NCBI GenBank assembly: GCA_035291645.1
Contig: DATDRQ010000310.1
Span: forward strand, 1-58,289
Direction of reading: 5' to 3'
DNA from: Anaerolineales bacterium
GTDB taxonomy: Bacteria > Chloroflexota > Anaerolineae > Anaerolineales > UBA4823
DNA length: 58,289 nt
In this document: positions 1 to 33,186 of the stretch, piece after piece
Position numbering within the stretch: position 1 is the stretch's first letter
Layout of the letters: each line of letters begins with the position of its first letter
Position numbers and translations under genes: made by a program
Notes under the pieces: model-generated
The model's input: only the letters and a program-made list of their open reading frames with translations
Database searches by the model: none
Told to the model about the DNA's origin: nothing

Positions 1-897
1 GCCCATGAAAAATAGGTCCTTATCATGTCCCTCCAACGCATATTCGGAAGTGGTGTCAAACATTCGTATCAGGGTTCCTAAAGGATCTATCCACATGGCC
101 GGCCAGAACAGGACGAATATCAGCACAGCTCCCGAAACGACAACCAGGAAAGGCCAGGTTAAGCGCCAGAAATTACCCCGATTCACGCGCCTGTCTTCGC
201 GCCAGGTATTCCAGATCGCCGCCAGGCTGACCAGCCCGAAGAAAGGAACCAGGAATATCGAGGGTGACTTCGTCAACCATGCAAAACCGGTCGCCAACGT
301 CGCCAGGAGCAGATCGGACCAGCGCCTTCCCTGGTAAATGAAACAAAGGAACGACAGCGCGGCGAGAAACATCAGGCTGCTGATCAGACCGTCCAGGTGT
401 AGAAGCCGTGTCAAGCCGATATGAAACGGGTCGAATGCGATCAACAGGATGCCGGCGAATGCGGGCCAGGTCCCGAATAAACGCCTGGCTGCCAGGAAAG
501 CGAGCAATAAAGCGAGCGAAGTTCCCAATACCATAAAATCGCGGGCTGATTCCAGGATCATAAGAGCTGGTCGCTCTCGAACCTTGAGAAACTGTTCCAG
601 TTTATGTATGTTAGCCAATGTCGCCGGAGGAGCTTCCCAGACCAATTCAGGGAAACGCCACAGGTAGGCAAACGATCCCGCCCACATCGCCGTCACTCCC
701 GGGTGGCTGTGTTGGAAGGTTCCGGCGAAGTTCTTGAGCCGCAACGAAGTGTAGAAACGTGCTGAGCGCCCAACCCAGGCCCACTCGTCGGCGGTCACGA
801 ACCGGTCCAGCGCCGGTGCGCGCGGCGCGACGATCGCCAATGACACCAGGATCAGGAAGAGAGCGCTCGCCCAACGCCTGTTAATCTGTGGGTTCAT
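1..897 (-). CDS. GT-C fold glycosyltransferase, family 39 (ArnT/PMT-like), N-terminal 299 codons; the 3' end runs off the window
   Basis: Absent from the supplied ORF track because it is open at the window edge. Reverse-strand translation from ATG 897-895 gives MNPQINRRWASALFLILVSLAIVAPRAPALDRFVTADEWAWVGRSARFY..HPGVTAMWAG..FDPFHIGLTRLLHLDGL.. with no stop through base 1. Collinear with the paralogs at 964-2721 and 15427-17130. Confidence 0.8.
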   Translation of the reverse strand, partial: MNPQINRRWASALFLILVSLAIVAPRAPALDRFVTADEWAWVGRSARFYTSLRLKNFAGTFQHSHPGVTAMWAGSFAYLWRFPELVWEAPPATLANIHKLEQFLKVRERPALMILESARDFMVLGTSLALLLAFLAARRLFGTWPAFAGILLIAFDPFHIGLTRLLHLDGLISSLMFLAALSFLCFIYQGRRWSDLLLATLATGFAWLTKSPSIFLVPFFGLVSLAAIWNTWREDRRVNRGNFWRLTWPFLVVVSGAVLIFVLFWPAMWIDPLGTLIRMFDTTSEYALEGHDKDLFFMG

Positions 898-963
898 ACA
901 GCCCTTCTGCCCAGACACCTTATACGCATCCGGTAGTTTTCCCAATTCGGAGAAAAGCAGCGA

Positions 964-2721
964 TTACTTGAACGAGAAGTTACGGATATCATAAATGCGC
1001 GCATATTCGATCCCATTCAACTCGATCACCCGCTCGGGCGCCAGTCCCTGGAGGGCGTTCAACATCTCGGGAAACGGCAGCTGGCGCTGCCACTGGTTGA
1101 CATAGGTTACGACGTAATCGATGTCCTCCAGCTCAAGGCGGGTGGGCTCCCACTCCGGCTGCGATCCGTTGGTCTCCCCATTGAAAAAATAGGAGAAACT
1201 GCCATCCGGGTACCAGGCCATCACCCGCAGGGAAGGCGCCTCCGGTTTGGCGTTCAGGTAGCGGGCCGCCTGGTCCAGCCCCTCTCCCCAACCGACCATC
1301 ATCACCCGGGGAGCCCTTCCCGACCCGCCCATGAGCGGGTTGTAATAGCTCAGGTAGTACGGGTAAGTCCTGACAACTGTCAGGGCTTGCAGCATAATAG
1401 CGGCGCCGAGGGTCAGCCCAACTGCCAGTCTTGCCCACCTGCTTGCAAGCCGACCTGCCAGCCAGCTCGTTCCCAGGAACAAACCGATCCCGGCGACCAG
1501 GTCGAGCGGCAGGAAGACTGGCAGCAGATAGCGGTCGAACTTCTTCGAGCCCAGGGACATGAACAGGGTAAACAGCGTAGCAAACAGGAGCAGGGCGAGC
1601 ACCGTCCATGTGAGCACCTGGTTTCCACCTTGCTTCCTGTAAAACAACAGACCCGGCGCCACCAACAACAGACCAACCAGGACAACAGGGGTGGTGCGCC
1701 AGGCGTAATTCACCAGGTAGAAACGGCGGCCCAGGTAGCTGGCCGGGAAGAGAAATTTTCCCGCGTGTTCGGTGAAGGCCTTGCGCTCATCGGTCGAGAT
1801 GATCCGCCCGTCGAAGAAAACATCCGAGGTATGCCCTTCTTGCGCATAAAGGCTGGCCTGCCCCAGCACGCGTTCTACAGTCCCGATCGGGTTGACCCAC
1901 ATCGCCGGCCACAACAGGAAATAGACCACAAGTCCGGTCGATACCCAGGCCAGAACCGGCCAAGCCTGACTCCATAGAACTCGCGCGCTCATCTTACGCT
2001 GTGTGTAAAACATTCGCCCGACCTCGATCAACGTCAGCACCAAGATGAACGGGGCCAGAAAAAAAGCCGGCGACTCGCTCAACCAGGCCAGCCCGGCGCT
2101 GACGCCGGACAGGACCAGGTCTGCCCACCGGCGGCCGCGCAAAATGAAAGCCAGGTAAGCCAGCAAGGAGAGGAACATCAAAGTGCTCATCAATCCGCTT
2201 GGGTGGAGCAGGCGCGACAGCCCAACATAGAAGGGATCGAAGGCAATCAGCAGGAAGCCGATCAGCGCCGGCCATACTCCCACCAACCTCACCGCCTCGA
2301 CAAACGCCGCCAGGAGTATCAGCGTGACCTGCAGGACGACGATAATTCGGCTGGCCTCCAGAACCTGCAACGGGTTGCGCCCGTTTGCCCGGAAGAACTG
2401 CTCCATTTCTTGCGGTTCGTCAAACCGGCCGGTCGCCTGCCTGACGTAGTCCGGGTAGCTTGTCAGGAATCCGGCAAGGCCGGCCCAGGTGATCGTCACC
2501 CCGGGGTGTTCGCGGGTGAAAGTACCCGCCAGGTCTCTCTGCGAGAGGGCCAGGTAGAAATTCGCCGATCGCTCCAGCCACTTCGGCTCATCCACCGAGA
2601 CGAAACTGGCCAGACCCAGGCCGCGCGGCAGGCTAACCGCCAGCCCGATCAGGACCAGGGCCGCGATCCATTGCCAGGTGGAGAGCTTCTCGGCGGCGCC
2701 CATGTTGAAACTCGGGGTCAT
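964..2721 (-). CDS. GT-C fold glycosyltransferase, family 39 (ArnT/PMT-like)
   Basis: 585 aa with many hydrophobic spans. Loop-1 FVSVDEPKW (Asp-Glu motif of PMT/ArnT-type enzymes), HPGVTITWAG, FDPFYVGLSRLLHPSGL. The C-terminal block YPYYLSYYNPLMGG..MMVGWGEGL is shared with 15427-17130. Confidence 0.85.
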   Translation of the reverse strand: MTPSFNMGAAEKLSTWQWIAALVLIGLAVSLPRGLGLASFVSVDEPKWLERSANFYLALSQRDLAGTFTREHPGVTITWAGLAGFLTSYPDYVRQATGRFDEPQEMEQFFRANGRNPLQVLEASRIIVVLQVTLILLAAFVEAVRLVGVWPALIGFLLIAFDPFYVGLSRLLHPSGLMSTLMFLSLLAYLAFILRGRRWADLVLSGVSAGLAWLSESPAFFLAPFILVLTLIEVGRMFYTQRKMSARVLWSQAWPVLAWVSTGLVVYFLLWPAMWVNPIGTVERVLGQASLYAQEGHTSDVFFDGRIISTDERKAFTEHAGKFLFPASYLGRRFYLVNYAWRTTPVVLVGLLLVAPGLLFYRKQGGNQVLTWTVLALLLFATLFTLFMSLGSKKFDRYLLPVFLPLDLVAGIGLFLGTSWLAGRLASRWARLAVGLTLGAAIMLQALTVVRTYPYYLSYYNPLMGGSGRAPRVMMVGWGEGLDQAARYLNAKPEAPSLRVMAWYPDGSFSYFFNGETNGSQPEWEPTRLELEDIDYVVTYVNQWQRQLPFPEMLNALQGLAPERVIELNGIEYARIYDIRNFSFK

Positions 2722-2744
2722 CCCAAGACCTGCTCCAATAAATC

Positions 2745-2764
2745 GCTCACCCGCTGGGGTGAGC
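2745..2764 (-). other. perfect 8-bp stem / 4-nt loop hairpin in the 88-nt gap between two glycan-locus genes
   Basis: GCTCACCC-GCTG-GGGTGAGC. On the transcribed (minus) strand it is followed by GATTTATT. It may be an intra-operon attenuator or stabiliser, and is not a canonical terminator. Confidence 0.3.
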
Positions 2765-2809
2765 TGCCAATCTCGTCCTCTCGAAAGACTGTCCAGCCGG
2801 ATCCAATGC

Positions 2810-4813
2810 TCAAGGTTTTGGCTCCAGGACTTCGATGCTCAGTTCCTTGAACAGCTTCTTGCTCCGGTAGGCTTCCAGGGTTGGGCGAACGACCCGTTTG
2901 ACCCAGGCATCGTTTTCCTCTCCAAATGAGAACTCCTCCCCCTTTATCACGTCCTTCAAGGGATCGGTGATGATCAGCGCGAATCTTCGCTTCGCCAGGT
3001 CGTCATAATAAGATCCCAGGTAAACCTGATTGCCCGCCATCGCCATCTCCATCAGAAATACTTTCTCGTATGGATCGACCAGGCCTACCAGCGGCAGGTT
3101 GTTGAAGGTCAGGAGCTGCCGCTCGGAGATGAACAACACTTCCCCGCCTCGTCCAACGGCCTGATCTACCATGCCTTTGATCTCGTTCAGGGCGGATGAT
3201 ATGACCGGTTTCTCCGGCAGAGGATGATAACCACCGGTCGAGATCGCCATGAGCACCGGGATGACAGACATTGCAGCCAGCACGGAAAGAGATGGCAGGC
3301 GCCCGGTAAACTTGCCTGGTTTTCCCCTCTGGATGCTCTGGAACAGGGCATAACCACCCATGATCAGCAGCAGCACCAGGTAAGCATCCAGGTTGTGCAG
3401 GTTGCTGCCCCCGCCGATCTTCGCGCTGACGACGACCCCCCCGGTGAAGAGGACTACCAGGATACCTGCCAACCCGGCCAACCGATTGAGGTGCAGCCCT
3501 CGCAGTTCTCTCGCCAGCAGGGTTAACATCGGTGCGGAGACCAGCACGGCTGCCGGCAAGATGCCCAGGGGGAAGGTCGGGTTAGGGAAAAGCCGGTACC
3601 ACAACAGGTCGGAAGAGAAGCTGGAGGTGAAGGCCTCTCCCTCCACCCCTGACCATAGGATGTAGACCGCCTGGGTCAGGGAAGCCGCCAGCGTCCCTAC
3701 CAAAATCCAGATCGCCGGCCAGGACAGGTAATTAACTGCCGACCGGAAACGGTTCGACCCAATAGCCGGTTCGAAATCCACCTCAAGAAAGTAGAGCACG
3801 GCTGCCAGCATGCCTGGGACGGGGTACCAGTTCACCCGGCTGATACCCGCCCAGGTGGAGGCAACTATTACCAAAGCCATCGCTTTCCACGGTCGTGTTC
3901 GATCGAATCCCCATACCAACAAAATCGGGATGAGCAACAAGTGGTAATATACGGGACCCTGAAAGAGGAAAAGGAAGGCCATTCCTACGAACAAGATCCC
4001 CACCAGCTCCCGGTCTTCCATACCAACCTTTGTGCGCGGTTCCTCAGCTGCGGGTAGGTTCCTACTCAATCTGTGGTTCAACAAGTAAGCCAGGCCGAAA
4101 GCGGTTGCCAGCCACAGGAGCACTTGCCAGGCGCGGTGGAACCAAAGCGGCAGCTGCGGGATGGTGAAGGGGATCGCCTGCATCAAATAGCGGCTGGGAT
4201 GCAGCGGAGACAGTGGGACAGCTTCTCCGTAAATCCTCTCTGACAAGAACAGCGAAGCGTAGTAGTAACGGCTGGCCTCCGACCAGCTCAGGGTAAACGG
4301 GTAGGTGGACACATCCGGGATGAAAGCGAGCAGCCGGTAACCCACTCCAGCCAGCAGCCAGGTAGCTGAGAGAACGACGATCCAGGACCGCTGGGGCGCA
4401 AACGCTTTAAGGAACACCGACCCGACCAGGCAGGTCATCCAAAAAAGGCTTAGCCGGGGGATAAATTCCTTGAGATATCGACCGGTCGGTCCGAGGATCA
4501 GGAATGAGTATGCCGCGATTATGAGAAGGAAGAAGAACAGGTTAAACCGTCCAAGCTGTTTCAACAGTCCAAGCCCCCGATCGAACCAGCTTTCCAGCCG
4601 CTCCCACCACTCCGTCCAGCTGGCGATCAACAGCGCGACCGGGACTGCCAATGCGGCCAGGCTCGCCAGGAACAGCGCCGTCCAGCGGATCGACTCGAAC
4701 AGATAATCTCGCCGGGAAAGCTCGGCGGCGATCTGCAGGGTTGTACCCCCAAATAGCAGGATGGTGATCCCCAGGATCAGGCGTGACTGGCTGGGGAATT
4801 CACGGCGCGTCAT
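2810..4813 (-). CDS. polytopic membrane protein with a ~190-aa C-terminal soluble domain; putative glycan polymerase or glycosyltransferase (family not recognised)
   Basis: 667 aa, about 480 aa of hydrophobic helices then a soluble tail (..VLFISERQLLTFNNLPLVGLVDPYEK..). ATGA start/stop overlap with the upstream gene at 4810-4813. The function is inferred from context only. Confidence 0.5.
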   Translation of the reverse strand: MTRREFPSQSRLILGITILLFGGTTLQIAAELSRRDYLFESIRWTALFLASLAALAVPVALLIASWTEWWERLESWFDRGLGLLKQLGRFNLFFFLLIIAAYSFLILGPTGRYLKEFIPRLSLFWMTCLVGSVFLKAFAPQRSWIVVLSATWLLAGVGYRLLAFIPDVSTYPFTLSWSEASRYYYASLFLSERIYGEAVPLSPLHPSRYLMQAIPFTIPQLPLWFHRAWQVLLWLATAFGLAYLLNHRLSRNLPAAEEPRTKVGMEDRELVGILFVGMAFLFLFQGPVYYHLLLIPILLVWGFDRTRPWKAMALVIVASTWAGISRVNWYPVPGMLAAVLYFLEVDFEPAIGSNRFRSAVNYLSWPAIWILVGTLAASLTQAVYILWSGVEGEAFTSSFSSDLLWYRLFPNPTFPLGILPAAVLVSAPMLTLLARELRGLHLNRLAGLAGILVVLFTGGVVVSAKIGGGSNLHNLDAYLVLLLIMGGYALFQSIQRGKPGKFTGRLPSLSVLAAMSVIPVLMAISTGGYHPLPEKPVISSALNEIKGMVDQAVGRGGEVLFISERQLLTFNNLPLVGLVDPYEKVFLMEMAMAGNQVYLGSYYDDLAKRRFALIITDPLKDVIKGEEFSFGEENDAWVKRVVRPTLEAYRSKKLFKELSIEVLEPKP

Positions 4814-5778
4814 TGGACTGGTTCAGCAGTATCCTTGCTTCCGGCGATCAGCCCGGGTACGAAGGCCGCTCCAGGCAGGCTGGCGATCATCATCATCGTG
4901 CGGAACAGGAGCGCGACGGTCAGCCCGCTTTGCATGGAAACCCCGCCGACTGCCGAAAATATAAAGGTCATGGAGACTTCCTGGATCCCATACCCGTTAA
5001 TCGAGAACGGGAGCAGGGTGACGAAGTAGACAATGCTATATAGGCCTCCAATTAACCACAGCGGGATACTATCGTTCATTCCACCTAACAAGACGTAAAT
5101 CACGCTAAACAGGCACAACATATTGACCCAGGTGAAGCCGAAGGATTTGAGCAGAGCACGGGGTTGGTAGCGCCAGATCACCAAGGCTGCCCATAACTTT
5201 CTCAGAATCCGCATCCCTTTTTCCCAGAATGGCCCGACCCATTTGCCCAGGGCTGAGGTCGCCGCCGCCGCCATGAAGAACGGCTGCCTGAGCGGTAGCA
5301 CGCTTTGGACACGCGTGGCTGCCAAAAAACCCGGCAGTCCAAACGGGATCATCACCGCCATCCCGGACATACCGACCAGGCGGTCCACAACCAGGGAAGC
5401 TGTGCTGATCGCCGCATCGAATTTCAAGCGGATGGCGCCCGCCAACCGGATGACATCCCCGCCGACCGTGGTTGGCAAGAAATTTGTGGCGAACAGCCCG
5501 GCGAAGGTGATGCGCAGCGTGTCACGGATCGAGATCCGCAAACCTGCCGAGCGTAGCAGGACGTGCCAGCGGCCCGCTACTGCAAAACGGGAGACAATCA
5601 TCAAGCCCATCGCCAACGCAAAGCGCCAGACGGGGATTTGCTCGACTGCCGCAATGATCTCCCCCCAACCCTGCTGGCTGAGCAGGTAAAACAACAATCC
5701 AAAGGCCAAAAGCGTCCCGAAGAGGCGGATGACGAAGCCCGATCGGCTGTTTGCAGCTCTAGACAGTTGTTCTTTCAT
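4810..5778 (-). CDS. flippase-like membrane protein (UPF0104 / lysyl-PG synthase TM-region family)
   Basis: 322 aa, multi-TM. RWHVLLRSAGL..FLPTTVGGDVIRL matches the family signature. 4-nt ATGA overlaps with both neighbours. Confidence 0.7.
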   Translation of the reverse strand: MKEQLSRAANSRSGFVIRLFGTLLAFGLLFYLLSQQGWGEIIAAVEQIPVWRFALAMGLMIVSRFAVAGRWHVLLRSAGLRISIRDTLRITFAGLFATNFLPTTVGGDVIRLAGAIRLKFDAAISTASLVVDRLVGMSGMAVMIPFGLPGFLAATRVQSVLPLRQPFFMAAAATSALGKWVGPFWEKGMRILRKLWAALVIWRYQPRALLKSFGFTWVNMLCLFSVIYVLLGGMNDSIPLWLIGGLYSIVYFVTLLPFSINGYGIQEVSMTFIFSAVGGVSMQSGLTVALLFRTMMMIASLPGAAFVPGLIAGSKDTAEPVQ

Positions 5779-6806
5779 GTTTTTCCTTCGCTACCGCCGA
5801 TAAACTTACGAACCGTATAGGTGGGTTTCGATTGTGATTCATGGTAAGTTCTAACCAACAACTCTGCGATCAATCCAAGCAGGATAGATTGAAAGCCCAG
5901 AATGAACAGCATCGTGCTCATTTGCAGCAGCGGTGATCGCACCATGGATTCCCCCTCGACCACTTTTCGAAGGATGATCACCAGCAAGGAGGCGAAGCTT
6001 GCTAGGAACAAGACGATGCCTGCCCCTCCGAAGAGATAAATCGGTTTGTTGGCATAACTGGATAGGAATTTCACCGTGAAAAGGTCGAGAATGACTTTCA
6101 CCGTTCTTTCCAGCCCATATTTGGTTTTGCCAAACTGGCGGGCGTGGTGCTTGACCTGGACTTCGATGATCCTGGCGCCGACCCAACCGGCAAAGGCAGG
6201 GATAAAGCGGTGCATTTCACCGTAAAGGCGAAACCCCGTGATGACTTCGCGCCGGTAGGCTTTCAAGGTGCAACCATAGTCATGCAGGCGAACGCCGGTT
6301 ACCCGTGAAATGAGACCATTCGCTATCTGGGAGGGGAGTCTGCGCGACAGGAATGGGTCCTGGCGGTTATACCGCCAGCCGCTGACCACGTCGTAGCCCT
6401 GGTTCAATTTCTCCAGCATCATTGGGATGTCCGCCGGGTCGTTCTGCAAGTCGGCGTCCATTAAGACCAGGATCTCTCCGGCAGAATGGTCGATACCGGC
6501 CGCGATCGCCGCGGTCTGTCCAAAATTGCGGCGCAGCTCGACCACGCGTACGTGCTCCGGATCTACTTGCGCCAGGCTTTCCAGGGCGGGAAGACTCTTA
6601 TCGGAACTGCCATCGTCCACGTAGACCACTTCCCAGGGGCGATCCAGGTCGCTCATCGCTTCAGAAATGGCCGATTGGAGCAATGAGATACTCTCCGCCT
6701 CGTTATAAACCGGGATTACGATCGACACCAGGGAACGGTCATCCGGAAATGCAACCATCGCCTCACTGGGTTGAGTTTGAACCACTCGATCGAGATCCAC
6801 GCTCAC
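5775..6806 (-). CDS. GT2 polyprenol-phosphate sugar synthase (GtrB/ArnC/DPM1-like) with two C-terminal TM helices
   Basis: VSIVIPVYNEAESI, VDDGSSDKS and MDADLQNDP motifs; C-terminal hydrophobic pair. GTG start with AAAGGA upstream. Confidence 0.85.
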   Translation of the reverse strand: MSVDLDRVVQTQPSEAMVAFPDDRSLVSIVIPVYNEAESISLLQSAISEAMSDLDRPWEVVYVDDGSSDKSLPALESLAQVDPEHVRVVELRRNFGQTAAIAAGIDHSAGEILVLMDADLQNDPADIPMMLEKLNQGYDVVSGWRYNRQDPFLSRRLPSQIANGLISRVTGVRLHDYGCTLKAYRREVITGFRLYGEMHRFIPAFAGWVGARIIEVQVKHHARQFGKTKYGLERTVKVILDLFTVKFLSSYANKPIYLFGGAGIVLFLASFASLLVIILRKVVEGESMVRSPLLQMSTMLFILGFQSILLGLIAELLVRTYHESQSKPTYTVRKFIGGSEGKT

Positions 6807-6821
6807 GTCCTTTACTAACCT

Positions 6822-8852: not shown

Positions 8853-8892
8853 TTCAGGCAAGATTCTGTCCTTAGGAATACACTTTATTTTA

Positions 8893-10830: not shown

Positions 10831-10843
10831 AGGATTTCCTCGC

Positions 10844-12762
10844 TCAGCGCAACCGTTTGAATATGCGGAGGCTGGCATCCTCCCGGCAAGATAAGGTCGG
10901 CTGGGTCACTGCCACCTGCTGGAAACGATTTGGATCTGACAATTCTTCTTTCAACCAGCCCTCGTAGAAGCGTTCCTGGACGAGTGTGAAATCCGCCTCA
11001 TCAAGCCAGCGTTCCGCCAGCGGCTGGTTCCAAAATCCGTAGTTCAACAGTTCTTGTGGGTCGCCGTCCAGGCGGAAAGTATATCCGTCGAATATCTGGG
11101 GCGGGTAGACCTGCACACCTGGCAGGTAGAGCAGGGGTACCGCCGAGAGACCGCCCTGCCAGTAGACCGTAGACCCTGGCGGGACTTGCTCCGTTAGCGA
11201 CGTGCCGACCGCTTCATAGGAGGCGATCACATCCCCCCCGCAATCGTAGGTGCGGAAACCGGCGCCCAAAGCAACGGTTGGGGTGAGCGCCAACCCGGCG
11301 ATCAGAAAGCCAACCAGCGCCAGCGCGCCAAAACTCCTGGATGCCGGTGGGTGTCCTGATCGCTCGCCTCGCTTCCAGACGAACGCACTGGCCCCCAGGA
11401 TCAATAATCCGGCGGCAAGGCCGCCCAGGGCGGGCAGCAGGCGCCGGGCTTCTCCATACTTCAGATTGAAGTTGTTCTGCAGGTATTCCCATAGCGGCAC
11501 GGTACCGGGCAGCAGCTGCCCGGTCCGGATCAGCGTCCGCAGGCGAGGAATACGCCAGTCGAGCAACAGATCGCCCACGGGATCGAAGGCGCTGAAGCCG
11601 ATCCCGGCTGCCAGGAGCAGCACCAGGACGACGATGACCGCCTGTCTCCAGACAGATAGCTGCCAGCGCCAGGATGTCGCGCTGGCGGCGACCAACAGAA
11701 ACCCTAAAAAGGAAAAGAATGCCAGATAGACCGGGAAGCAGAATATGCAGTAGTTGCGCCCCAATGCATCGTAAGTCTGTGCGTTAACCCCTAAGGAAGC
11801 CCAGGCGTGGGCAAAGAACAGGACACCCAGCAGGCTGAGCAGCAGGACGCTGGCCTTGAATTTAAATTCGCTCTTCCACCGGCCCCTGGGAGGCCACAGG
11901 TATAGGGCGGTCAGCGCCCCGGCCAGGGCGACGAAGTGAAAACGGAAGCCGAGCAGGAAACTATAGATGCGGCTCTCCAACCCCACCTCTGGATTCCAGA
12001 TCGGGGTGGCGCGCGGCGGTCGCCAGGGGGCCAGGAAAGGCGCCAGGCGTTCCGGCAGCCAGGCCGCCCACTGGCGCAGGATGCCCGGCCAGAACAGTGC
12101 GTGACCGAGCAGGAAAACGCCCAGGCCCGCCAGAATTGCCAAACCACCTGCCCGCCTGCCATGCTGCCAGAAGATGTATGCGAGCAGGATGGGCAGCACC
12201 GGGAACAGGTTGAGGCGGGTGAGGACGACGGCCCCCGCCAGGGCAGCTCCCAGGCTGATCTGCCACAGCTTTAAGCCTTCGCCTACAGTCAGCGCCAGCA
12301 TCCATACCAGCATGCAGGCGACCAGCACCTGTGCGTTCATCAGGCTGTACATTTTCACCAGCGCCGGATTGATCGCCACCAGCAGGACCGCGGCCGCTGC
12401 CCACCACCGTCCTCCCAACCGGCGCGCCGTCAGCCACAGCCCAAGCAGCATCAGCAGGCCCAGGACGATCGCCAGGTAGCGACCGGTGCGGATTCCCGGC
12501 TCAGAGAGTACCTGAACAATGCCTGGAACCATAAAAGAAAGAGGCATGTGGTTCGTCCAGAAACCGAAATCCTGGAATGGGTGGTATTTTCCTTGAGCGA
12601 ACAGCTGGCCGATGAAGAGATAAGCGCCCTCGTCGACCAATGAAGCCTGCGTGTGGGCGTAGATCCAGGACTGGAGCAGGTAGATCAGGCCTCCGGCGAG
12701 AGCGGCGACATCCGCCAGGCCCGATCGGGCCCAGCGAGCTTCCCAGACCAGCGCGTTCTGCA

Positions 12763-12763
<1 letters not shown>
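10844..12763 (-). CDS. GT-C-like membrane glycosyltransferase, tandem paralog 2
   Basis: LVDEGAYL loop motif; blocks RTGRYLAIVLGLLMLLGLW and LAYIFWQHGRRAG are shared with paralog 1. ATG at 12763 overlaps the gmd stop (TGATG); the track start 12766 is a TTG. Confidence 0.7.
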
Positions 12764-15380
<2,617 letters not shown>

Positions 15381-15426
15381 ACTCAATGAAGCTATCTAAC
15401 AGCTGCCTGGCTTTGTTTTGCCTGGA

Positions 15427-17130
15427 TCAAGGCTTTACCTTATAAATCTTGACGTACTCGACCCCGTCGATCCAGATCGTATGTTCTGGAGTCTTCGTTT
15501 CCAGGTAGTCGAACAGCGACCCCGGTATGTCCCGCTGCCACTGGTTGATATACACGACGATGTAATCAGCGGTATCGTACGTCAGCTGGACGTGTTCGGA
15601 GGAGCCAGACGGAAAAGGGATCTGCTCAGCCAGGATTTTATAGCTGGCGCTGTACCAGTCGAACGCCAGGGTGTACCAGGAGTAAATGAGGCGGTCCTGG
15701 ATCCCCGGGACCTGCCGCAAATATGTCGCCGCCTCATTCAAGCCCTCCCCCCAGCCCACCATCATCACCTCCTGCGCCTTTCGGCTGCCGCCCAGCAGTG
15801 GATTGTAATAGGTCAGGTAATAGGGATAATGCTGCAGAGTGCCAATCGCCTGAAACGCCAGAGCGGCCAGCAATATGATCCCCGCCAATACTTGTGCGGT
15901 CGGTTTTCGCAGTTTTCTGGTCGACCAGCTGGCGACCGCCACCCAGCCGAGGCCTGCGATCAGATCGAGGGGCAAATATACTGGAAGAAGGTAGCGATCG
16001 AACTTCTTGCTACCCAGGGTCATCAGCAAGGTGAACGCGACGATGAATAAGAACAGGCCGAGGACTGCGAAACGGGGATTGCGATCTGCGAGGGGAGGCC
16101 AGCGTTTCCAAATAGCCAATGTTGCCGCAGCTAGCCCGATCAAGATCACGGGGGTGCTGCGCCAGAGATAACTGAGCGGGTAAAAGTACCAGAAGTTCGA
16201 TGGGTCCGCCTCGCCTGCCTGGAAAGCCTCCACGAACTGCGCGCCTCCCAGCTCTCCCTCGGCTGAATCCAGGGTATAAGCCAAGGTTTGTGATAGGGTC
16301 GTGGCAGGATTCCTCCACAAAGCCGGCCAAAGCAGAAATACAACCAGCAGAGTGGTCCCTCCCCACAAGAGCAGCCCTGCTCCGGTTCTCCGGATCGAAG
16401 CAGCTCTTTCCTGATCGGAAAACTGCTTTTGCCGGAAAATGTCAAGGATGGTCAGCAGAAGCAAGAGCGGCGCCAGGATCACGGCCGGGGTCTTGGTGAG
16501 CAGGCTCAGCCCGGCAGCCATCCCGGATACGACCAGCGACCACCCGCGCCGGTTCTGCAGGAAATCCAGGTATGCCAGGACAGACAGGAACAGGAAACTG
16601 CTGAGCAGTCCGTCGACGTGCAGCAGGCGTGAGTGGGCCAGATAGAATGGGTCAAAGGCGATGAAAAGGCATCCGACCAGGGCTGGAATGAGGCCAAACA
16701 ACCGCCGGGCGAATATAAGCCCCAACAGAAAGGCGATCAGATTCATTAGAACGACCAGGGCGCGCGCCATCGCCAGCACTTCGATCGGGCGAGGCCCGTG
16801 CCGAAAGAAGAGCTGGAACAGCTTGGAATCGCCCATACGCACTTCGCCAACCCGAGCGTACTTCGGAAATTTCAAGTGAAAAGCACCCGCCCCAGCCCAC
16901 ATCGTGGTGACCCCGGGATGCGGCGAGAGGAAAGTAGCCGGGTAATCTCCTTTGGAAAGCGCCAGGTAAAATGTGGCCGAGCGTTTTCCCCAGGTTGGCT
17001 CATCGGCAGTCACGAAGCGCCCCAGGGCGACCAGGCGCGGCGCGGCGAAAGCCAGCCCCAATATAACCAGGAGCACCCCTCCCCCCAGCATCTTCCTGAT
17101 AGAAGTCGATGATACCCGGCTTCTATCCAT
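15427..17130 (-). CDS. GT-C fold glycosyltransferase, family 39 (ArnT/PMT-like)
   Basis: FVTADEPTWGKRS, HPGVTTMWAG, FDPFYLAHSRLLHVDGL, FDRYLLPVYLPLDL and YPYYLTYYNPLLGG..MMVGWGEGL are collinear with 964-2721. Confidence 0.85.
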   Translation of the reverse strand: MDRSRVSSTSIRKMLGGGVLLVILGLAFAAPRLVALGRFVTADEPTWGKRSATFYLALSKGDYPATFLSPHPGVTTMWAGAGAFHLKFPKYARVGEVRMGDSKLFQLFFRHGPRPIEVLAMARALVVLMNLIAFLLGLIFARRLFGLIPALVGCLFIAFDPFYLAHSRLLHVDGLLSSFLFLSVLAYLDFLQNRRGWSLVVSGMAAGLSLLTKTPAVILAPLLLLLTILDIFRQKQFSDQERAASIRRTGAGLLLWGGTTLLVVFLLWPALWRNPATTLSQTLAYTLDSAEGELGGAQFVEAFQAGEADPSNFWYFYPLSYLWRSTPVILIGLAAATLAIWKRWPPLADRNPRFAVLGLFLFIVAFTLLMTLGSKKFDRYLLPVYLPLDLIAGLGWVAVASWSTRKLRKPTAQVLAGIILLAALAFQAIGTLQHYPYYLTYYNPLLGGSRKAQEVMMVGWGEGLNEAATYLRQVPGIQDRLIYSWYTLAFDWYSASYKILAEQIPFPSGSSEHVQLTYDTADYIVVYINQWQRDIPGSLFDYLETKTPEHTIWIDGVEYVKIYKVKP

Positions 17131-17133
17131 AGA

Positions 17134-18357
17134 TTATCGGATTGGCTGGTCCGACCAGCCAGGTTGTGCGATAGTGGACAGTCCAGCGAGGAGGCGTTCG
17201 GCACGCGCCTCCCAGGAGTACTGTTTAGAATCCTGCCTGGCCCTGGCGCCGAGCGCCAGCCGACGTTCAACATCCATTTGCATTTGCAGGATGGCTTCAA
17301 CCCATCGATCCAGGTCGTCCGGCGGAAGGAGCACCGCGTTCTCGAGAGCTAGCACCTCCCTCAACACGGGCAAATCGCTGGAGAGGATGGCTCTCCCGCA
17401 GGCCAGGTACTCGAACAGTTTCATCGGGCTCAGGTAGCGGGCAATGTCCCCGCCTGAGGACGCCGCTACCTTGTGCTGGTAGGGCATCAACAACACGTCA
17501 CAGGCCGCCTGGTATTTGGGCAGTTCGGCGTTGGGGATGAAGCCGGTTAATATCAGGTTTTCCAAACCGCGCTCAGCCACACGCTCCTGAATCTTGTCCA
17601 CTTCCTCCGGTTCTCCCCCCATGAGCAGGAAATTAACCTCAGGCAAGCGCGCCGCCAGGTCGAGCATCAGCTCCACCCCGCGACCTGGATACAGGTGCCC
17701 CGAGTAGCCCGCAGTGAAGCGCTCCACCTGAAAAGCAGGCCTCTGGTTACCGAGAACCGAGCAGAGAGCCGGGCCGATCACCCGGCGTGCCTGCTCAGGG
17801 GGTGGCACATCCGCATAGCGGGAGAGATCGACCCCATCTGGAGCAACCATGATCAGGTCTCCCTCCGGCGGCAATTCGAGCGCCAGGGTGAGATCGGTCT
17901 TGAGGGTGGTCGAGATCAAGACTAACCGCCTCCTGCCGCGCCCGCGCAGGAACAGCTTGACCAGTCCCGGCCCCATTTTCCCGGTTGGCAGATCGTGCAA
18001 TTCGAGGATCGTTGGGATGCTTGCCAGACTGGCGAGAGCGGCTGCTTGCAGGAGGCGTGTGTAAACCAGGCTTGCCCCGCTGCCTTTCGCCCAACGAACC
18101 GATCTCCAGGCATAATCGTATTTGCGGGCGCGCGGACCGCAGGGCAGCTCGACGATCGGGAAGCGATGCTGGAGGCCATAGTGATTGGCCAGTTGGTCCC
18201 AATTTTCCGAGCTGCGCCCTGCCTGAGATGGAGCGCCTGGATACGCCAAATCTACCTCGATGCCAAGGGATACGAACGCCTGGGCCATCTTCATCACCTG
18301 GATAGTGTTGGCCGAGTTCGCCGGTATGTGGGTAGGGGCAATGACGGCGATCTTCAT
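17134..18357 (-). CDS. glycosyltransferase family 4 (GT-B, group 1)
   Basis: 407 aa. The C-terminal ..SPMKLFEYLACGRAILSSDLPVLREV.. is the EX7E-type motif of GT4 enzymes. ATGA overlap with the Wzx-like gene. Confidence 0.85.
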   Translation of the reverse strand: MKIAVIAPTHIPANSANTIQVMKMAQAFVSLGIEVDLAYPGAPSQAGRSSENWDQLANHYGLQHRFPIVELPCGPRARKYDYAWRSVRWAKGSGASLVYTRLLQAAALASLASIPTILELHDLPTGKMGPGLVKLFLRGRGRRRLVLISTTLKTDLTLALELPPEGDLIMVAPDGVDLSRYADVPPPEQARRVIGPALCSVLGNQRPAFQVERFTAGYSGHLYPGRGVELMLDLAARLPEVNFLLMGGEPEEVDKIQERVAERGLENLILTGFIPNAELPKYQAACDVLLMPYQHKVAASSGGDIARYLSPMKLFEYLACGRAILSSDLPVLREVLALENAVLLPPDDLDRWVEAILQMQMDVERRLALGARARQDSKQYSWEARAERLLAGLSTIAQPGWSDQPIR

Positions 18358-19712
18358 GCTAGGTCAGCCTGGCGTTCCAACAATACGGCGTATGACTTGC
18401 GGACGTTGAGGGATACCGAGAAAAGATAGAAAGCGGACAATAAAGCTGCGCTTCCCAGGTAGCCAAATACCGGCACGATCAACAAAATTCCGGCGACCTT
18501 GAGACCGGCCGCGATCAGGTTGACCTTGGTCGGGTAATCAGGCAACCCTAAAGACAATAGGGCGATCCGGTTCCAATAGAAGGTAGCCGCGACCACATAA
18601 CCGACCATCAGGAGCAGGATAGCCGGGTAGGCGGGTAAGAATTCCGGCGTATAAAAGATGCGGATGATAAGCGGCCCGAAGATCAGCAGCCCCAGGCTGG
18701 CTGCCAGGGAATATGCAAAAGCTAGCAGGCTACCCTGGCGCAGCACTTTCCGCAGGCTGGCCCAATCTCGCCGGGCTGCCTCACGAGATAGTTCTGGGTA
18801 GGTCGCTTGCGGGAGCGGGCTGACCGGCAGTTGCACCAGGTTGACCAGACTCAGGGCAAGCTTATAATACCCTGCCCCAGTAGGACTGCTTAATGCCGAG
18901 ACCCACAGCAGCTCACCGTCCTTGTTGACCAGGTTGATCGTGGCGCTGATATTCGTGCTGACCGCGAAACGCCCGACCTCGCCCAGGCGCTCCCTCAACA
19001 AGCCAAACGGAGACCTCCACCAACCGGGACCCCAGCGCTGGCCGGCTTCTGACAAGGCGATCAAGGTCAGGCTTAATGAACCAACCGTCTTCCCCGCCAT
19101 GTAAGCCAGCAGAACCTCCAGCAAGCCACCCTGGATGTAATATGCAACGCCAACCAGGATCAGGGTCAGCAGACTTTGCCCGACCGTTACGATTGCGATG
19201 GCCCTGTAACGGTCGAAGATCTGCAATAATCCCGTGGAGCTTTCGGACATGAAATTTGCCAGGACGATCAAACCATACAGGATAAACCACCCGGCCAGCC
19301 CGGCGTCTTTTGCGAAATAGCGTGCGCCAAGAGGCGCCAGCAGCCAGATCAGCCCGAATGCAAATATCGAGGTGAGCGTCTCTGTGACTCCAGCAGTCTT
19401 GAAAACAGCCGCCGCCCGGCGGCTGTCCCCGCTGACGGAAAATTCCCCCACATACTTGATCACCAGCTCGCTCATCCGGAAGGAGGCAAATTTATTCACG
19501 ACGCTGGTGAAGACCGTGATCGTCCCCAGGATGCCAAAATCCGTGACACCCAGCAGGCGAGCTGTCAGGATGCTCTGCAGCATACTCAGCCCGGCTGAGA
19601 GACCGGTCGCGCTGAACAGGTAGCCAGAATTGCGGAATACCCGCTGGATTAATTCATTTTCCAGGAAGCGGGGGAAGCGGCGCGCCAAGTTGATTGGAGG
19701 GGACTTTCGCAT
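18354..19712 (-). CDS. polysaccharide flippase (Wzx-type, MOP superfamily)
   Basis: 452 aa, about 12-14 TM helices, with the N-terminal pattern typical of polysaccharide biosynthesis proteins. Confidence 0.75.
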   Translation of the reverse strand: MRKSPPINLARRFPRFLENELIQRVFRNSGYLFSATGLSAGLSMLQSILTARLLGVTDFGILGTITVFTSVVNKFASFRMSELVIKYVGEFSVSGDSRRAAAVFKTAGVTETLTSIFAFGLIWLLAPLGARYFAKDAGLAGWFILYGLIVLANFMSESSTGLLQIFDRYRAIAIVTVGQSLLTLILVGVAYYIQGGLLEVLLAYMAGKTVGSLSLTLIALSEAGQRWGPGWWRSPFGLLRERLGEVGRFAVSTNISATINLVNKDGELLWVSALSSPTGAGYYKLALSLVNLVQLPVSPLPQATYPELSREAARRDWASLRKVLRQGSLLAFAYSLAASLGLLIFGPLIIRIFYTPEFLPAYPAILLLMVGYVVAATFYWNRIALLSLGLPDYPTKVNLIAAGLKVAGILLIVPVFGYLGSAALLSAFYLFSVSLNVRKSYAVLLERQADLA

Positions 19713-19739
19713 CGGGGGATTGTGCTGGCTGCCCGGAGA

Positions 19740-20735
19740 TCAATCGGTCTCTACTTGGCACGCCCATTCCCGTTCGGCTTCATACCAGGCGATCAGCTCA
19801 GCCAGGCCCTGGCGAAGCGACACCTGTGGGCGCCATCCCAACAGCTCTTCAGCCTTCTCTACGTTAGCCAGGTTGGCGTGCATATCCGCCGGATGTGCAG
19901 GCCGCCATTCGATCTGAGCTTTGTGACCGATCAGCTCCTCCATCAAGCGAATGAGATCGTTGATCTTAACCGATTCGTGCCCGCCTAAGTTTATGATCTC
20001 GAAACCTACCGGCCGGAGCCCCAGGATCGTCCCTCGTGCGATGTCATCGATGTAGGTAAACCCGCGAGTCTGTTCTCCATCCCCGTTGAGTTTCACCGGA
20101 CGCCCCTCGCGGATCCATTGAGCGAAGCGGAACATGACCATATCCGGTCTGCCAGCCGGCCCGTAGACCGTAAAGTAGCGAAAAACCGTCACGTCGACGC
20201 CGTAGAGAAAATGGTAAGCATGGCACATCACCTCGGCGCCTTTCTTGCTGGCCGCATAAGGCTGCAGCGGGTGATCGCTATCTGCCTCCTCGGGGGTCGG
20301 TAGCGGCGCCCTGGCACCGTAAAGGCTGGAGGTTGAAGCCAGGATGAACTTCCTGATCCCGTGTGTCCGGCAGAGTTCGAGCAAATTGAGCGTCCCGGTT
20401 ACGTTGGTGTCAACATAAACCCATGGGTTCTCCACGGATTGGCGCACCCCAGCCCGGGCAGCCAGATTAATTACAGCAGAAAATCCGGGGAAATGAGGCT
20501 GCGAATAGGCTCCCTTTGCCAGGTCCTGTACCGCCAGGTTGTCGGAAATATCCAGCCGGGTGAACTGGAAGCCCGGCCGATCGAGCAGCCTGGCGAGGCG
20601 GTATTCTTTCATCCGTAGATCATAGGCGTCGTTGAGGTTATCGACGCCACTAACCTGGTGGCCATCGTCCAGGAGCATTGCAGCCAGGCGGGCGGCGATG
20701 AAACCTGCGACACCGGTGACGAGGAAATATGCCAT
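19740..20735 (-). CDS. NAD-dependent nucleotide-sugar 4-epimerase (UDP-glucuronate / UDP-GlcNAcA 4-epimerase-like, TviC/Cap1J type)
   Basis: LVTGVAGFIAARLA..GVDNLNDAYDLRMKEYRL is the N-terminal signature of the UDP-uronate 4-epimerase subgroup. YAASKKGAE is the catalytic YxxxK. Confidence 0.75.
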   Translation of the reverse strand: MAYFLVTGVAGFIAARLAAMLLDDGHQVSGVDNLNDAYDLRMKEYRLARLLDRPGFQFTRLDISDNLAVQDLAKGAYSQPHFPGFSAVINLAARAGVRQSVENPWVYVDTNVTGTLNLLELCRTHGIRKFILASTSSLYGARAPLPTPEEADSDHPLQPYAASKKGAEVMCHAYHFLYGVDVTVFRYFTVYGPAGRPDMVMFRFAQWIREGRPVKLNGDGEQTRGFTYIDDIARGTILGLRPVGFEIINLGGHESVKINDLIRLMEELIGHKAQIEWRPAHPADMHANLANVEKAEELLGWRPQVSLRQGLAELIAWYEAEREWACQVETD

Positions 20736-20798
20736 GGTCTGCCCTTTATGATTCTCCAGTCGTTTCGTTGACAGGGAACCCGGTCACGGGTGCGCGTC

Positions 20799-22118
20799 TC
20801 ACAACCGGACCACGCGGGAGCTTTTGCGCCCCATCTGACCGAGCGCGTTGCGAGTATCCACAATCAACCTGGCGCTCTCCAGCAGTTTGGGATAGTCGTA
20901 GGCTTTGTGGTTCGTGATGATCACCACGCAGTCGGCCTCCTGCGCCGCCCGGATCGCGTCCGGCACGCTGTGGAGATCCAAATCGTCTTGCTGAATGCGC
21001 GGGATATACGGATCGTGATAGCTGACCTCGGCGCCTTTTTGCCGCAGCAGACCGATCACATCCAGGGCTGGCGACTCCCTCAAATCGTCGACATCCGGCT
21101 TATAGGCGGCTCCCAAAACCAGTACGTGGCTGCCCTTGATGGGTTTTGTCTGGTCGTTTAATGCATCCTGAATCTTGTTCACTACGTAGCGCGGCATCCC
21201 AGTGTTGATCTCCGAAGCCAAATCGATGAAACGGGCAGTATAGTTGAGCGTGCGCAGTTTCCAGGAGAGGTAGAGCGGATCGATGGGGATGCAGTGACCG
21301 CCTAGACCGGGTCCCGGGGTAAATCTCATGAATCCGAACGGCTTGGTTGCGGCTGCATCGATCACCTCCCAGACATCGATCCCCAGACGGTCGCACATGA
21401 TCGCCATCTCGTTGACCAGGCCGATGTTGATCATCCGGAAGGTATTCTCCAGCAGTTTCGTCATCTCCGCGCTCTCGGTTGAAGAGACCGAGACGATGGT
21501 CTTAAGCGCCAGCTGGTACCAGCTGGCGGCGACCTCGGTGCAAGCCGCGGTTATGCCTCCGATCACCTTGGGAGTATTGTAGGTCGTCCAGTCTTCCCGT
21601 CCGGGATCGACCCGTTCGGGCGAGAAAGCCAGGAAGAAGTCTTCGCCAACGGTGAGACCGGACTGCTCGGTCAACGTTGGCAGCAGGATCTCGCGCGTCG
21701 TCCCGGGATAGGTGGTCGATTCGAGCACGATCACCAATCCGGCATGGATGTGCTCCGCCAGTTCCCTGGTCGCGTCTAATATAAAGGAGAGATCGGGGTC
21801 GCCGGTCTTGCGCAGCGGGGTAGGAACGCAAATACTGACAGCATCCGCCTGCTTTAATACGGTGAAATCTGTGGTCGCCTTCAGCTTCCCGGAGGCGACC
21901 AGCCGGGCAACCTGTTCGCCGGGGACATCCATGATGTAACTTTCCCCGCGACAAAGCGCTTCTACCTTGTGCGCATTCAAATCTACTCCGATAACATTAA
22001 AACCAGCCTCTGCGAACAGAGTCGCCAGCGGCAGGCCAACATAGCCCATACCGACAACGACAACGTTCGCCTGGCGTTGCTGTAAGCGTTCTATCAATGT
22101 CTCGCGTGCAGAACTCAT
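20799..22118 (-). CDS. nucleotide-sugar 6-dehydrogenase (WbpA/TviB-like, probably UDP-GlcNAc 6-dehydrogenase)
   Basis: VVVGMGYVGLPLATLFAEAGFNVIGVDLN; about 20-aa N-terminal extension and 439-aa length typical of the UDP-N-acetyl-hexosamine dehydrogenase branch. Confidence 0.85.
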   Translation of the reverse strand: MSSARETLIERLQQRQANVVVVGMGYVGLPLATLFAEAGFNVIGVDLNAHKVEALCRGESYIMDVPGEQVARLVASGKLKATTDFTVLKQADAVSICVPTPLRKTGDPDLSFILDATRELAEHIHAGLVIVLESTTYPGTTREILLPTLTEQSGLTVGEDFFLAFSPERVDPGREDWTTYNTPKVIGGITAACTEVAASWYQLALKTIVSVSSTESAEMTKLLENTFRMINIGLVNEMAIMCDRLGIDVWEVIDAAATKPFGFMRFTPGPGLGGHCIPIDPLYLSWKLRTLNYTARFIDLASEINTGMPRYVVNKIQDALNDQTKPIKGSHVLVLGAAYKPDVDDLRESPALDVIGLLRQKGAEVSYHDPYIPRIQQDDLDLHSVPDAIRAAQEADCVVIITNHKAYDYPKLLESARLIVDTRNALGQMGRKSSRVVRL

Positions 22119-22766: not shown

Positions 22767-22842
22767 ACATCACCTCGCCAAAACGATCACGGAAGTTCGA
22801 ACATCCAATCATATCACTGACTTTTATGTTCGTTAGCGGCTA

Positions 22843-33128: not shown

Positions 33129-33186
33129 CATCCGGTCCAATCGCCCGGCCTGATAGATTGCCACCATCCGAATTGAGGATACTCTC

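Follow-up and report, generated by a model that had tools for sequence, protein, structure and literature searches.

A probable cell-envelope polysaccharide assembly locus with eight large polytopic membrane proteins in an uncultured Anaerolineales bacterium

The first 22 kb of contig DATDRQ010000310.1, from the metagenome-assembled genome (MAG) of an uncultured Anaerolineales bacterium (Chloroflexota), encode eight large polytopic membrane proteins together with a lipid-linked sugar donor synthase, flippase-like proteins and nucleotide-sugar enzymes. The question raised by this locus is what such a set of putative glycosyltransferases (GTs) of the GT-C type assembles, and from which donors. 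The window analysed is the whole contig of 58,289 bp; the eight membrane proteins are labelled M1–M8 from contig position 1 upward, and FLP denotes the flippase-like gene. The locus probably makes up most of a cluster for the assembly of a cell-envelope polysaccharide, a cluster that is conserved throughout the class Anaerolineae. The most likely role of this cluster is to use lipid-linked sugars, outside the membrane, to build or decorate a polysaccharide of the cell surface. The component types and their conserved linkage are established by computation, and a mechanism that would join them is proposed below. In its core this agrees with a preliminary description of the contig, which had recognized GT-C-like transferases, a lipid-phosphate sugar synthase, a UPF0104 protein and a branch comprising Wzx, GT4 and nucleotide-sugar genes.

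Layout and conservation of the gene cluster

Positions 1–22118 contain 15 tightly packed genes, all on the minus strand, rather than the 16 consecutive genes counted in the preliminary description. The open reading frame (ORF) coordinates given there agree with the ORF listing, and the 1-nt and 4-nt overlaps it reported are borne out by direct reading of the sequence. A TGATG at 12761–12765 has one nucleotide common to the stop codon of Gmd and the start codon of M6, and ATGA overlaps join FLP to M3 (4810–4813), GT2 to FLP (5775–5778) and Wzx to GT4 (18354–18357). The remaining intergenic gaps in the locus are 3–88 nt. The minus-strand run extends past the locus via udg, rimI, tsaB, tsaE and a uvrD/pcrA helicase gene to 26799. 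At the other side the contig end lies inside M1 (1–897), of which 299 residues are kept versus ~570–585 in its paralogues, and exact-sequence look-ups with M2 gave no longer contig reaching beyond the left end of the window.

Relatives of M3 occur in 579 species-level genomes, and the best 80 loci are all from Chloroflexota, mostly Anaerolineales and Anaerolineae. When the window proteins were mapped onto the ORFs of 83 loci (relatives' loci are numbered in the form L001), one co-directional order recurred. Its first part is (tsaE tsaB rimI udg)–dehydrogenase–epimerase–Wzx–GT4–(other polytopic protein)–M7–Gmd, and its second part runs from Gmd through (family B)–(M4)–(GT2)–flippase–M3–(M4, family A) to a helix–turn–helix (HTH) regulator, two SDRs, Wzm, Wzt, and GTs with methyltransferases. 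The gene order of the window is also seen in L001–L003. Gene counts were made in the 47 loci with full 10-kb flanks: the flippase is directly upstream of M3 in 45 of them, and Wzm and Wzt are each present in 39, M7 and GT4 in 33, Wzx in 31, Gmd in 30, GT2 in 29, M4 in 21, family B in 10 and family A in 9. The order is thus kept in dozens of Chloroflexota genomes, so that the genes are phylogenetically linked.

Downstream of the cluster the relatives carry ABC2_membrane, ABC_tran with Wzt_C, methyltransferase and multidomain GT2/GT4 signatures, Wzm/Wzt being co-directional with the cluster in the 39 loci that have them. A gene set of this kind is characteristic of ABC-dependent polysaccharide synthesis. 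The closest syntenic relative, L007, reads GT4–M7–Gmd–M5–M4–GT2–flippase–M3–M2–M2–HTH–SDR–SDR–Wzm–Wzt. Since the contig ends inside M1 and L007 runs on to Wzm/Wzt, the ABC exporter of this locus probably lies just beyond the contig end, and the window locus would represent the 5′ two-thirds of a larger conserved cluster that ends in Wzm/Wzt in relatives. The earlier remark that no ABC exporter was recognized holds for the window, as judged by tblastn, but the relatives carry on to wzm/wzt past the point at which the contig stops. A conserved, mostly soluble protein of ~510–550 residues follows Wzt in 27 of the 47 loci (L007 20330–21853; L025 17033–18676); one copy has a weak Capsule_synth (PF05159) match, and the protein may be a KpsC/KpsS-like enzyme for the ABC-exported polymer.

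Over the best 80 loci the flippase stands immediately upstream of M3 in 70, with a median gap of 5 nt, and in 42 of those 70 it is directly preceded by GT2 (median gap −4 nt). Judged by gene order, the conserved heart of the cluster is the flippase–M3 pair, and the PMT_2 paralogues appear as variable, lineage-specific accessories. GT-C genes within 10 kb of M3 mostly number 2–3 per locus, as against eight in the window and seven in its nearest relatives, L001 and L006, from which the window differs by the tandem duplication of M5/M6; M1/M2 form a second tandem pair. In one clade (L034–L038, L042, L047, L048, L066 and L081) Gmd is directly followed by flippase–M3, at around 8000–12000, and an extra polytopic protein of 524 residues lies between GT4 and M7; an ArnC/GtrB-type GT2 is absent throughout the 22-kb locus in that clade.

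The tsaE–tsaB–rimI–udg genes adjoin the cluster both in the window (22128–24544) and in L002 (1–3300), the M4 of which is 40% identical, and the same neighbours at this level of identity indicate that the chromosomal position is old and stable. Acquisition of the locus as a horizontally transferred island was ruled out: the GC content is even throughout the contig (0.55–0.62), and the locus occupies the same chromosomal place in the distant L002. The AT skew of the plus strand is strongly positive at 1–20000 (0.09–0.27) versus approximately zero elsewhere in the contig; the coding strands there are T-rich, which is expected of a minus-strand run of hydrophobic membrane proteins.

Promoter and terminator scans gave results near the shuffled expectation. 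The best sigma-70-like promoter match of the region (26808–26836, minus strand, TTGACA-17-TACAAT, 11 of 12 consensus positions) is upstream of uvrD/pcrA, at the head of a 20-gene minus-strand run that includes the glycan locus. A terminator-like hairpin at 2745–2764 (minus strand), with an 8-bp stem of which 6 pairs are GC and a T-containing tail, lies in the 88-nt M3–M2 gap and is the sole terminator-like match in any intergenic gap of the locus. This consensus match may separate the family-A genes from the core in transcription, either as a boundary or as an attenuator. At the position of the hairpin, L001 and L006 have an insertion of a GT4, a phosphodiesterase-family gene and a second flippase-like gene.

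The membrane proteins and the donor module

The eight polytopic proteins fall into five groups: family A (M1, M2 and M8), family B (M5 and M6), M7, M4 and M3. Pairwise comparison detected no sequence similarity between groups, and hhalign gave no signal (probability <2%) for M3 against M7, M3 against M4 or M4 against family A, so that the five GT-C groups are not linkable by sequence. The gathering threshold of Pfam PMT_2 (PF13231), 26.1 bits, is passed by five of the eight (M1, 46 bits; M2, 28.8; M6, 30.2; M7, 44.2; M8, 45.6), and the same scan of the locus proteins gave no match for M3, M4 and M5 themselves. Crude prediction places 10–13 transmembrane segments in each of the seven complete proteins and 5 in the truncated M1, with soluble tails of ~135–143 residues in M2–M6 and M8 and of 10 residues in M7. 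The preliminary description had called all eight GT-C-like: seven can be assigned to GT-C by family or fold (PMT_2, family B, and Foldseek in the case of M4), and M3 appears GT-C-like at low confidence. No transporter family was matched by any of the eight; a transporter identity was rejected, the transporter matches of M3 and M4 in Foldseek having probabilities of ≤0.11 and template modelling (TM) scores of ≤0.16.

Five Asp–Glu (DE) motifs after the first hydrophobic segment, to which attention had been drawn earlier, are all present and are kept in the alignments of relatives. These are ADEWAW in M1 (D37, E38), VDEPKW in M2 (D44, E45) and ADEPTW in M8 (D43, E44), and in family B, LDEGSY in M5 (D50, E51) and VDEGAY in M6 (D44, E45). 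They are invariant among relatives in family B and conserved in at least 90% in family A, which argues that they are not chance occurrences. Two home-made topology analyses over- or under-segmented the helices and were informative for family A and M4. From the hydropathy and positive-inside count, the side of the membrane that carries the conserved acidic residues could be assigned clearly for family A and plausibly for M4, and was ambiguous for the other proteins.

Family A consists of M1 (1–897; the N-terminal 299 residues), M2 (964–2721; 585 residues, with a C-terminal soluble domain) and M8 (15427–17130), with identities of 44% for M1–M2, 37% for M1–M8 and 42% for M2–M8. The PMT family is also matched by M8 and, at 27.8 bits, by M1. 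The only PDB match of the family-A profile is yeast Pmt2 (6p25, E 9.6e-4), and the sole NCBIfam match of the family is Agl23 (TIGR03663), with 48.8 bits for M8 and 20.7 bits for M1, below the cutoff of 126.25. In family B, M5 (8893–10830), the start codon of which is either GTG at 10830 or ATG at 10878, is the tandem paralogue of M6 (10844–12763). M5 is assigned to GT-C because it is 54% identical to M6 over 629 residues and 18 of 20 family-B members match PMT_2; its D50/E51 aligns with the invariant family-B DE. M6 carries the family-invariant D44/E45 and a Cys pair (C508/C626) in its C-terminal domain. M7 (13767–15380) has two extra N-terminal helices, and the family alignment places an invariant D120...R124-D125 in a long loop after the third hydrophobic segment. 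In most relatives M7 is kept beside GT4/Wzx. Single-sequence phmmer searches of the PDB with M8, M7 and M6 gave nothing useful, and PDB profile searches with the M3, M4, M7 and family-B alignments gave no match.

M4 (6822–8852) is a protein of 676 residues with a predicted GT-C fold and a distant relation to DUF2298. M4 itself has no Pfam match, including none to DUF2298 (PF10060), which is found at E ≤0.01 in 5 of 48 aligned relatives; approximately one-third of the M4 database matches bear a precomputed PF10060 match. AlphaFold and Foldseek were run on M4 and M3. The M4 model has a predicted local distance difference test score (pLDDT) of 88.7 and a predicted TM score (pTM) of 0.91, and the ten top Foldseek matches are all GT-C enzymes, among them AftA (8.5e-6), DPY19, STT3, ArnT, PglB and Pmt4, with probabilities of ≥0.98 and TM scores of 0.33–0.46. 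Invariant residues include an FDEPKN motif (D125) after the fourth helix, the loop of which is placed outside the membrane by short-loop charges in the crude topology, and a C650/C674 pair. An extracytoplasmic placement of the C-terminal domains of M4 and family B would fit the invariant Cys pairs in them.

Of the membrane proteins in the cluster, M3 (2810–4813; 667 residues), the partner of the flippase-like gene, is the best conserved; it belongs to an unnamed, weakly GT-C-like family of 1125 clusters at 50% identity. It has no Pfam or NCBIfam match, and a Pfam scan of 46 of its relatives gave no GT-C family. The AlphaFold model (pLDDT 88.6) has its top four Foldseek matches in AftA, yeast Stt3 and ArnT, all weak (E 4e-3 to 0.2, TM score ~0.4), and the matches below these are noise. 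A conserved loop contains E179, R182, YYY, H205, R208, H226/R227 and a GGGSNLHNLD motif. Three predicted metagenomic proteins carry M3 as part of a longer chain: P0242 joins M3 to M4 (1313 residues), P0327 joins an M7-like protein to M3 (1141 residues), and P0262 joins M3 to a C-terminal alpha/beta hydrolase domain (985 residues). These fusions hint at a joint function and may equally be gene-calling artefacts.

GT2 (5775–6806) is predicted to be a polyprenyl-phosphate glycosyltransferase of the ArnC/GtrB/DPMS type, in which a GT-A domain (PF00535, 115 bits) is followed by two C-terminal transmembrane helices, seen as two hydrophobic segments in the sequence. Residues 26–336 align with residues 9–314 of the ArnC structure 9bhc (E 1e-60), and residues 27–334 with residues 28–328 of the GtrB structure 5ekp (E 4e-39). 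Against the ArnC equivalog NF007986 it scores 234 bits, below the cutoff of 529, and no arnA, arnB, arnD or arnT gene is among the domain matches in the window. FLP (4810–5778; 322 residues) encodes a stand-alone MprF-type flippase-like membrane protein (PF03706/UPF0104; LPG_synthase_TM 120 bits, cutoff 33.4) and overlaps both its neighbours, GT2 and M3, through ATGA. Its score with the flippase-like domain TIGR00374 is 36.6 bits, under the cutoff of 43.2; as an MprF it lacks the aminoacyl-phosphatidylglycerol synthase domain (NF033480, 20.9 bits, cutoff 600), and a sequence search of the PDB gave no match. The structure alignments, the PF03706 match and the ATGA overlap bear out the earlier claim of a GtrB/ArnC-like synthase translationally coupled to a UPF0104 protein. 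The further claim that these are the three components of a Gtr-type system stands as regards a Gtr-like logic and fails as regards membership: GtrA (PF04138) was matched by no locus protein in Pfam scans, and a PF03706 protein occupies that position.

The remaining genes supply the nucleotide-sugar branch that had been described, which is borne out by Pfam and NCBIfam matches. Gmd (12763–13731) is a GDP-mannose 4,6-dehydratase (TIGR01472, 440 bits, cutoff 415; PF16363, 437 bits), the start of which is most likely the ATG at 13731 and not the TTG at 13794. GT4 (17134–18357) is a predicted cytoplasmic GT-B glycosyltransferase (Glyco_trans_1_4, 62 bits; Glycos_transf_1, 59 bits), preceded by the gene for a Wzx-like flippase of the MOP superfamily at 18354–19712 (Polysacc_synt, PF01943, 68 bits; Polysacc_synt_3, 55.6 bits). 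The gene at 19740–20735 encodes an SDR-family nucleotide-sugar epimerase or dehydratase (Epimerase, 180 bits) with sub-threshold equivalog matches throughout, including TviC at 85 bits, and that at 20799–22118 a nucleotide-sugar 6-dehydrogenase (TIGR03026, 450 bits, cutoff 190). The dehydrogenase is nearest to UDP-N-acetylmannosamine and UDP-N-acetylglucosamine dehydrogenases (WecC-type, 281–293 bits; TviB, 211 bits), below the cutoffs of those models. Together, Gmd, the dehydrogenase and the SDR suggest a hexosaminuronic acid and a GDP-mannose-derived 6-deoxyhexose. No Wzy_C or O-antigen ligase family was matched anywhere in the window in Pfam scans, and M3 or M4 could be candidates for the polymerase role.

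Proposed mechanism and alternative explanations

In the mechanism that we propose, GT2, at the inner face of the membrane, would charge polyprenyl phosphate with a sugar taken from a nucleotide sugar, the PF03706 protein would flip the lipid-phosphate sugar, and each GT-C enzyme would pass the sugar to a glycan outside the membrane, the enzymes differing in linkage or position. The GT-C enzymes would use an acidic residue in an extracytoplasmic loop; the motif in question is DE in M4 and in both families A and B, whereas M7 has D...RD. In a parallel branch GT4 may extend a lipid-linked unit that is flipped by Wzx and polymerized or transferred en bloc by a GT-C enzyme; such a route, as in the lactococcal polysaccharide pellicle (PSP) pathway, would explain the absence of Wzy and of an initiating phosphoglycosyltransferase from the window. 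The polymer that would be exported by Wzm/Wzt, whose genes follow the cluster in relatives, probably serves as the backbone acceptor. The eight-enzyme set would have arisen by lineage-specific duplication of PMT_2 paralogues, and eight GT-C enzymes predict an unusually branched or heterogeneous glycan.

Several points weigh against a polysaccharide assembly cluster working in this way. No stand-alone PF03706 protein has so far been shown to act as a flippase (PMC12713373), and a current proposal holds that Agl23, which among named proteins stands nearest to family A, is a flippase rather than a transferase (PMC11182771). The topology estimate is crude, with a clear result for family A alone and a plausible one for M4. 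Domain scans, with tblastn for Wzm/Wzt, found no Wzm/Wzt, phosphoglycosyltransferase, LCP ligase or Wzy in the window. The GT-C assignment of M3 is weak (E 4e-3, TM score ~0.4): its candidate loop has no invariant Asp, E179 alone being conserved at ≥90%, and profile–profile comparison of M3 with M4 or M7 gave no similarity. Finally, a sizeable clade keeps flippase–M3 and has no GT2 in the locus, so that the chain from GT2 to flippase to GT-C enzyme is not obligatory.

Proteins rather than a polysaccharide could be the acceptors, the PMT_2/PMT-like enzymes modifying secreted or surface-layer proteins by O- or N-glycosylation with the polyprenyl-phosphate sugar made by GT2; models for this are the actinobacterial Pmt/Ppm1, PgfS/PgfM1/PgfM2 of Streptococcus mutans and the archaeal AglD/Agl systems. 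The PMT and PMT_2 matches would suit such a role, as would the yeast protein O-mannosyltransferase that is the only PDB match of the family-A profile, the STT3, PglB and DPY19 among the Foldseek matches of M4, and Gmd, which points to GDP-mannose metabolism in the locus. GT2 also matches PgfS (174 bits) and AglJ (60 bits), but both scores are far under the equivalog cutoffs of 500 and 325, and the breadth of PMT_2 takes in ArnT-like transferases for lipids and glycans as well. The cluster is, moreover, conserved with Wzx, Wzm/Wzt (Wzt_C) and multidomain polymerizing GTs, which are marks of polysaccharide synthesis, and no candidate acceptor protein is encoded in the locus; protein glycosylation is therefore considered unlikely. 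Equally, the flippase–M3 pair could work on membrane lipids, an MprF-type protein flipping a modified phospholipid or glycolipid which M3 uses or remodels outside, as modelled on MprF, Pseudomonas aeruginosa GpgSDF and Clostridioides difficile HexSDF. PF03706 is the flippase domain of MprF, FLP has weak matches to glucosaminyl-phosphatidylglycerol flippase and MprF models, and the pair is retained in the clade whose loci lack GT2. In some relatives, too, a GT4 gene and a gene of the type-I phosphodiesterase family are inserted next to a second copy of the flippase, and stand-alone UPF0104 proteins have been assigned to glycolipid operons (PMC12713373). Nevertheless, both in the window and in 42 of the 70 relatives that have the pair, the flippase is translationally coupled to a GT2 of the ArnC/GtrB type, and the known relatives of this GT2 act on polyprenyl phosphate. 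As the best structural matches of M3 are GT-C enzymes that use polyprenol-linked sugars, and no deacetylase or aminoacyl-phosphatidylglycerol synthase domain is present, a lipid-modifying role appears improbable.

A different doubt concerns the number of transferases, since some PMT_2-like proteins, especially family A, might be Agl23-like translocation helpers, in which case the expanded set would be overstated. The sole NCBIfam match of M8 and M1 is indeed the model of the 'flippase activity-associated protein Agl23', archaeal Agl23, when purified and placed in proteoliposomes, moved a lipid-linked oligosaccharide across the membrane (PMC11182771), and family-A genes follow a second flippase-like gene in L001, L005 and L006. 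The two scores fall well short of the family cutoff, however, the DE motif conserved in family A is typical of catalytic GT-C enzymes, and a dedicated PF03706 protein and Wzx are already present; we regard a helper role as quite improbable. That the genes are functionally unrelated neighbours, with an operon-like appearance arising by coincidence of strand and spacing, is scarcely credible. Co-directionality proves little in itself, the minus-strand run going on into the housekeeping genes udg, rimI, tsaB, tsaE and uvrD, and the promoter and terminator scans are near background, but coincidence is contradicted by an order kept across dozens of Chloroflexota species at 40–57% protein identity, by the 1- and 4-nt overlaps and by the fusions joining M3 to M4 and M7 to M3.

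Assembly of a cell-envelope polysaccharide, comparable to that of the lactococcal rhamnose-rich cell wall polysaccharide or of mycobacterial arabinogalactan, thus stays the favoured reading of the locus. A bolder proposal, which is possible but doubtful, is that flippase–M3 constitutes a new two-gene module. M3 would receive from the MprF-type flippase a lipid-linked donor, the lipid being possibly other than polyprenol, and would found an unclassified GT-C-like family that provides the polymerase or ligase otherwise missing. Acting with M4 and M7, its occasional fusion partners, M3 would construct or anchor the outer polysaccharide layer of Anaerolineae and Chloroflexota envelopes.

Genomic setting, significance and comparison with known systems

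Outside the glycan locus the contig carries housekeeping genes. A bacterial archaeo-eukaryotic release-factor-like protein (baeRF_family10, 142 bits) is encoded at 36464–37564 on the plus strand, after genes for DnaJ-like and HtrA-like protease proteins. A small soluble GT2 (40516–41292, plus strand) adjoins a zinc-dependent phospholipase-C-like gene (39626–40450, plus strand), and a methyltransferase gene at 38215–38970 lies on the opposite strand to this GT2; no link of these to the glycan locus was established. Two tRNA genes on the plus strand (39116–39188 and 55309–55380), both outside the locus, are the sole Rfam matches in the contig. The ORF at 32908–33675 (minus strand, 255 residues) has no Pfam match at E ≤1e-5 and may not be a real gene, as it overlaps the end of an opposite-strand HhH-GPD glycosylase gene.

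Chloroflexota stain Gram-negative and have layered envelopes, yet they are without genes for lipopolysaccharide and outer-membrane biogenesis, and the make-up and biosynthesis of their outer layers are still unexplained (PMC13319060). The cluster described here, with Wzm/Wzt, Wzx, a lipid-phosphate sugar synthase, an MprF-type flippase and several GT-C enzymes, offers a concrete genetic candidate for such a layer. It also brings to light M3 as an uncharacterized membrane-protein family with a flippase as its fixed partner, and the loci, which range naturally from one to eight GT-C genes, form a series that could serve to tie enzyme content to glycan structure. The window locus is an exceptionally transferase-rich copy of this cluster, which follows a known strategy and is not a new kind of system. 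The triad of GT2, UPF0104 and GT-C proteins, noted earlier in Archaea, is here met with in bacteria, in a setting of polysaccharide synthesis.

Three-component systems are well established and draw on flippases of various families (PMC11127046). Those compared here were GtrA/GtrB/GtrC, ArnC/ArnEF/ArnT, GacI/J/K/L, CsbB/GtcA/YfhO and Citrobacter ORF15/14/12. [quoted passage not shown] It differs in having a stand-alone PF03706 protein in place of GtrA or an SMR-type flippase, and in that one synthase would serve up to eight GT-C-like proteins from at least five unrelated sequence families. From the Arn system it is set apart by the GT2 score below the ArnC equivalog cutoff, and a lipid A pathway is not expected in Chloroflexota (PMC13319060). 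With regard to Wzx/Wzy-dependent pathways, a Wzx-like protein is present, and neither Wzy nor an initiating phosphoglycosyltransferase was matched in the window.

In Archaea an AglD-like GT2, a UPF0104 protein (arCOG00899) and a PMT/STT3-like protein (arCOG00563, Agl23) form a conserved neighbourhood with a predicted role in glycosylation, the UPF0104 proteins being predicted as its flippases (PMC5898192). The same triad of domain families is found here, and Agl23 is the one NCBIfam model that family A matches. Unlike the archaeal triad, the locus is bacterial and set in a polysaccharide cluster with Wzx and, in relatives, Wzm/Wzt; its scores lie far below the Agl23 cutoff, and no archaeal counterpart of M3 or M4 was identified in this analysis.

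The mycobacterial cluster for arabinogalactan and lipoarabinomannan (AftA–D, EmbA–C, Rv3789, Rv3806c and the Wzm/Wzt pair Rv3781/3783) likewise brings many GT-C enzymes together with a lipid-donor synthase, a donor flippase and an ABC exporter to make wall polysaccharide outside the membrane; M3 and M4 both have AftA as their best structural match. The mycobacterial donor comes from a UbiA-type decaprenylphosphoryl-5-phosphoribose (DPPR) synthase with DprE1/E2, whereas a GT2 is found here, and there is no relation at the sequence level (the PDB profile searches being empty), the structural likeness standing at a TM score of ~0.4.

The final comparison is with the dual-chain pathway of the rhamnose-rich cell wall polysaccharides of lactococci (Rha-CWPS) and streptococci (the group A carbohydrate, GAC). 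In lactococcal Rha-CWPS the rhamnan backbone is ABC-exported; a GtrB-like GT2 starts a unit linked to C55-phosphate, cytoplasmic GTs extend it, a Wzx-like flippase moves it across the membrane, and GT-C enzymes polymerize the unit and attach it to the rhamnan (PMC10821137). The Anaerolineae cluster has no rml/rgp rhamnan genes in the window, where the nucleotide-sugar genes point instead to a uronic acid and a GDP-6-deoxyhexose; it has an extra PF03706 flippase and different GT-C families (PMT_2, DUF2298-like and M3), and its ABC exporter is seen in the relatives alone. Across the Anaerolineae, nonetheless, the cluster holds each of the component types found in the lactococcal and streptococcal systems.

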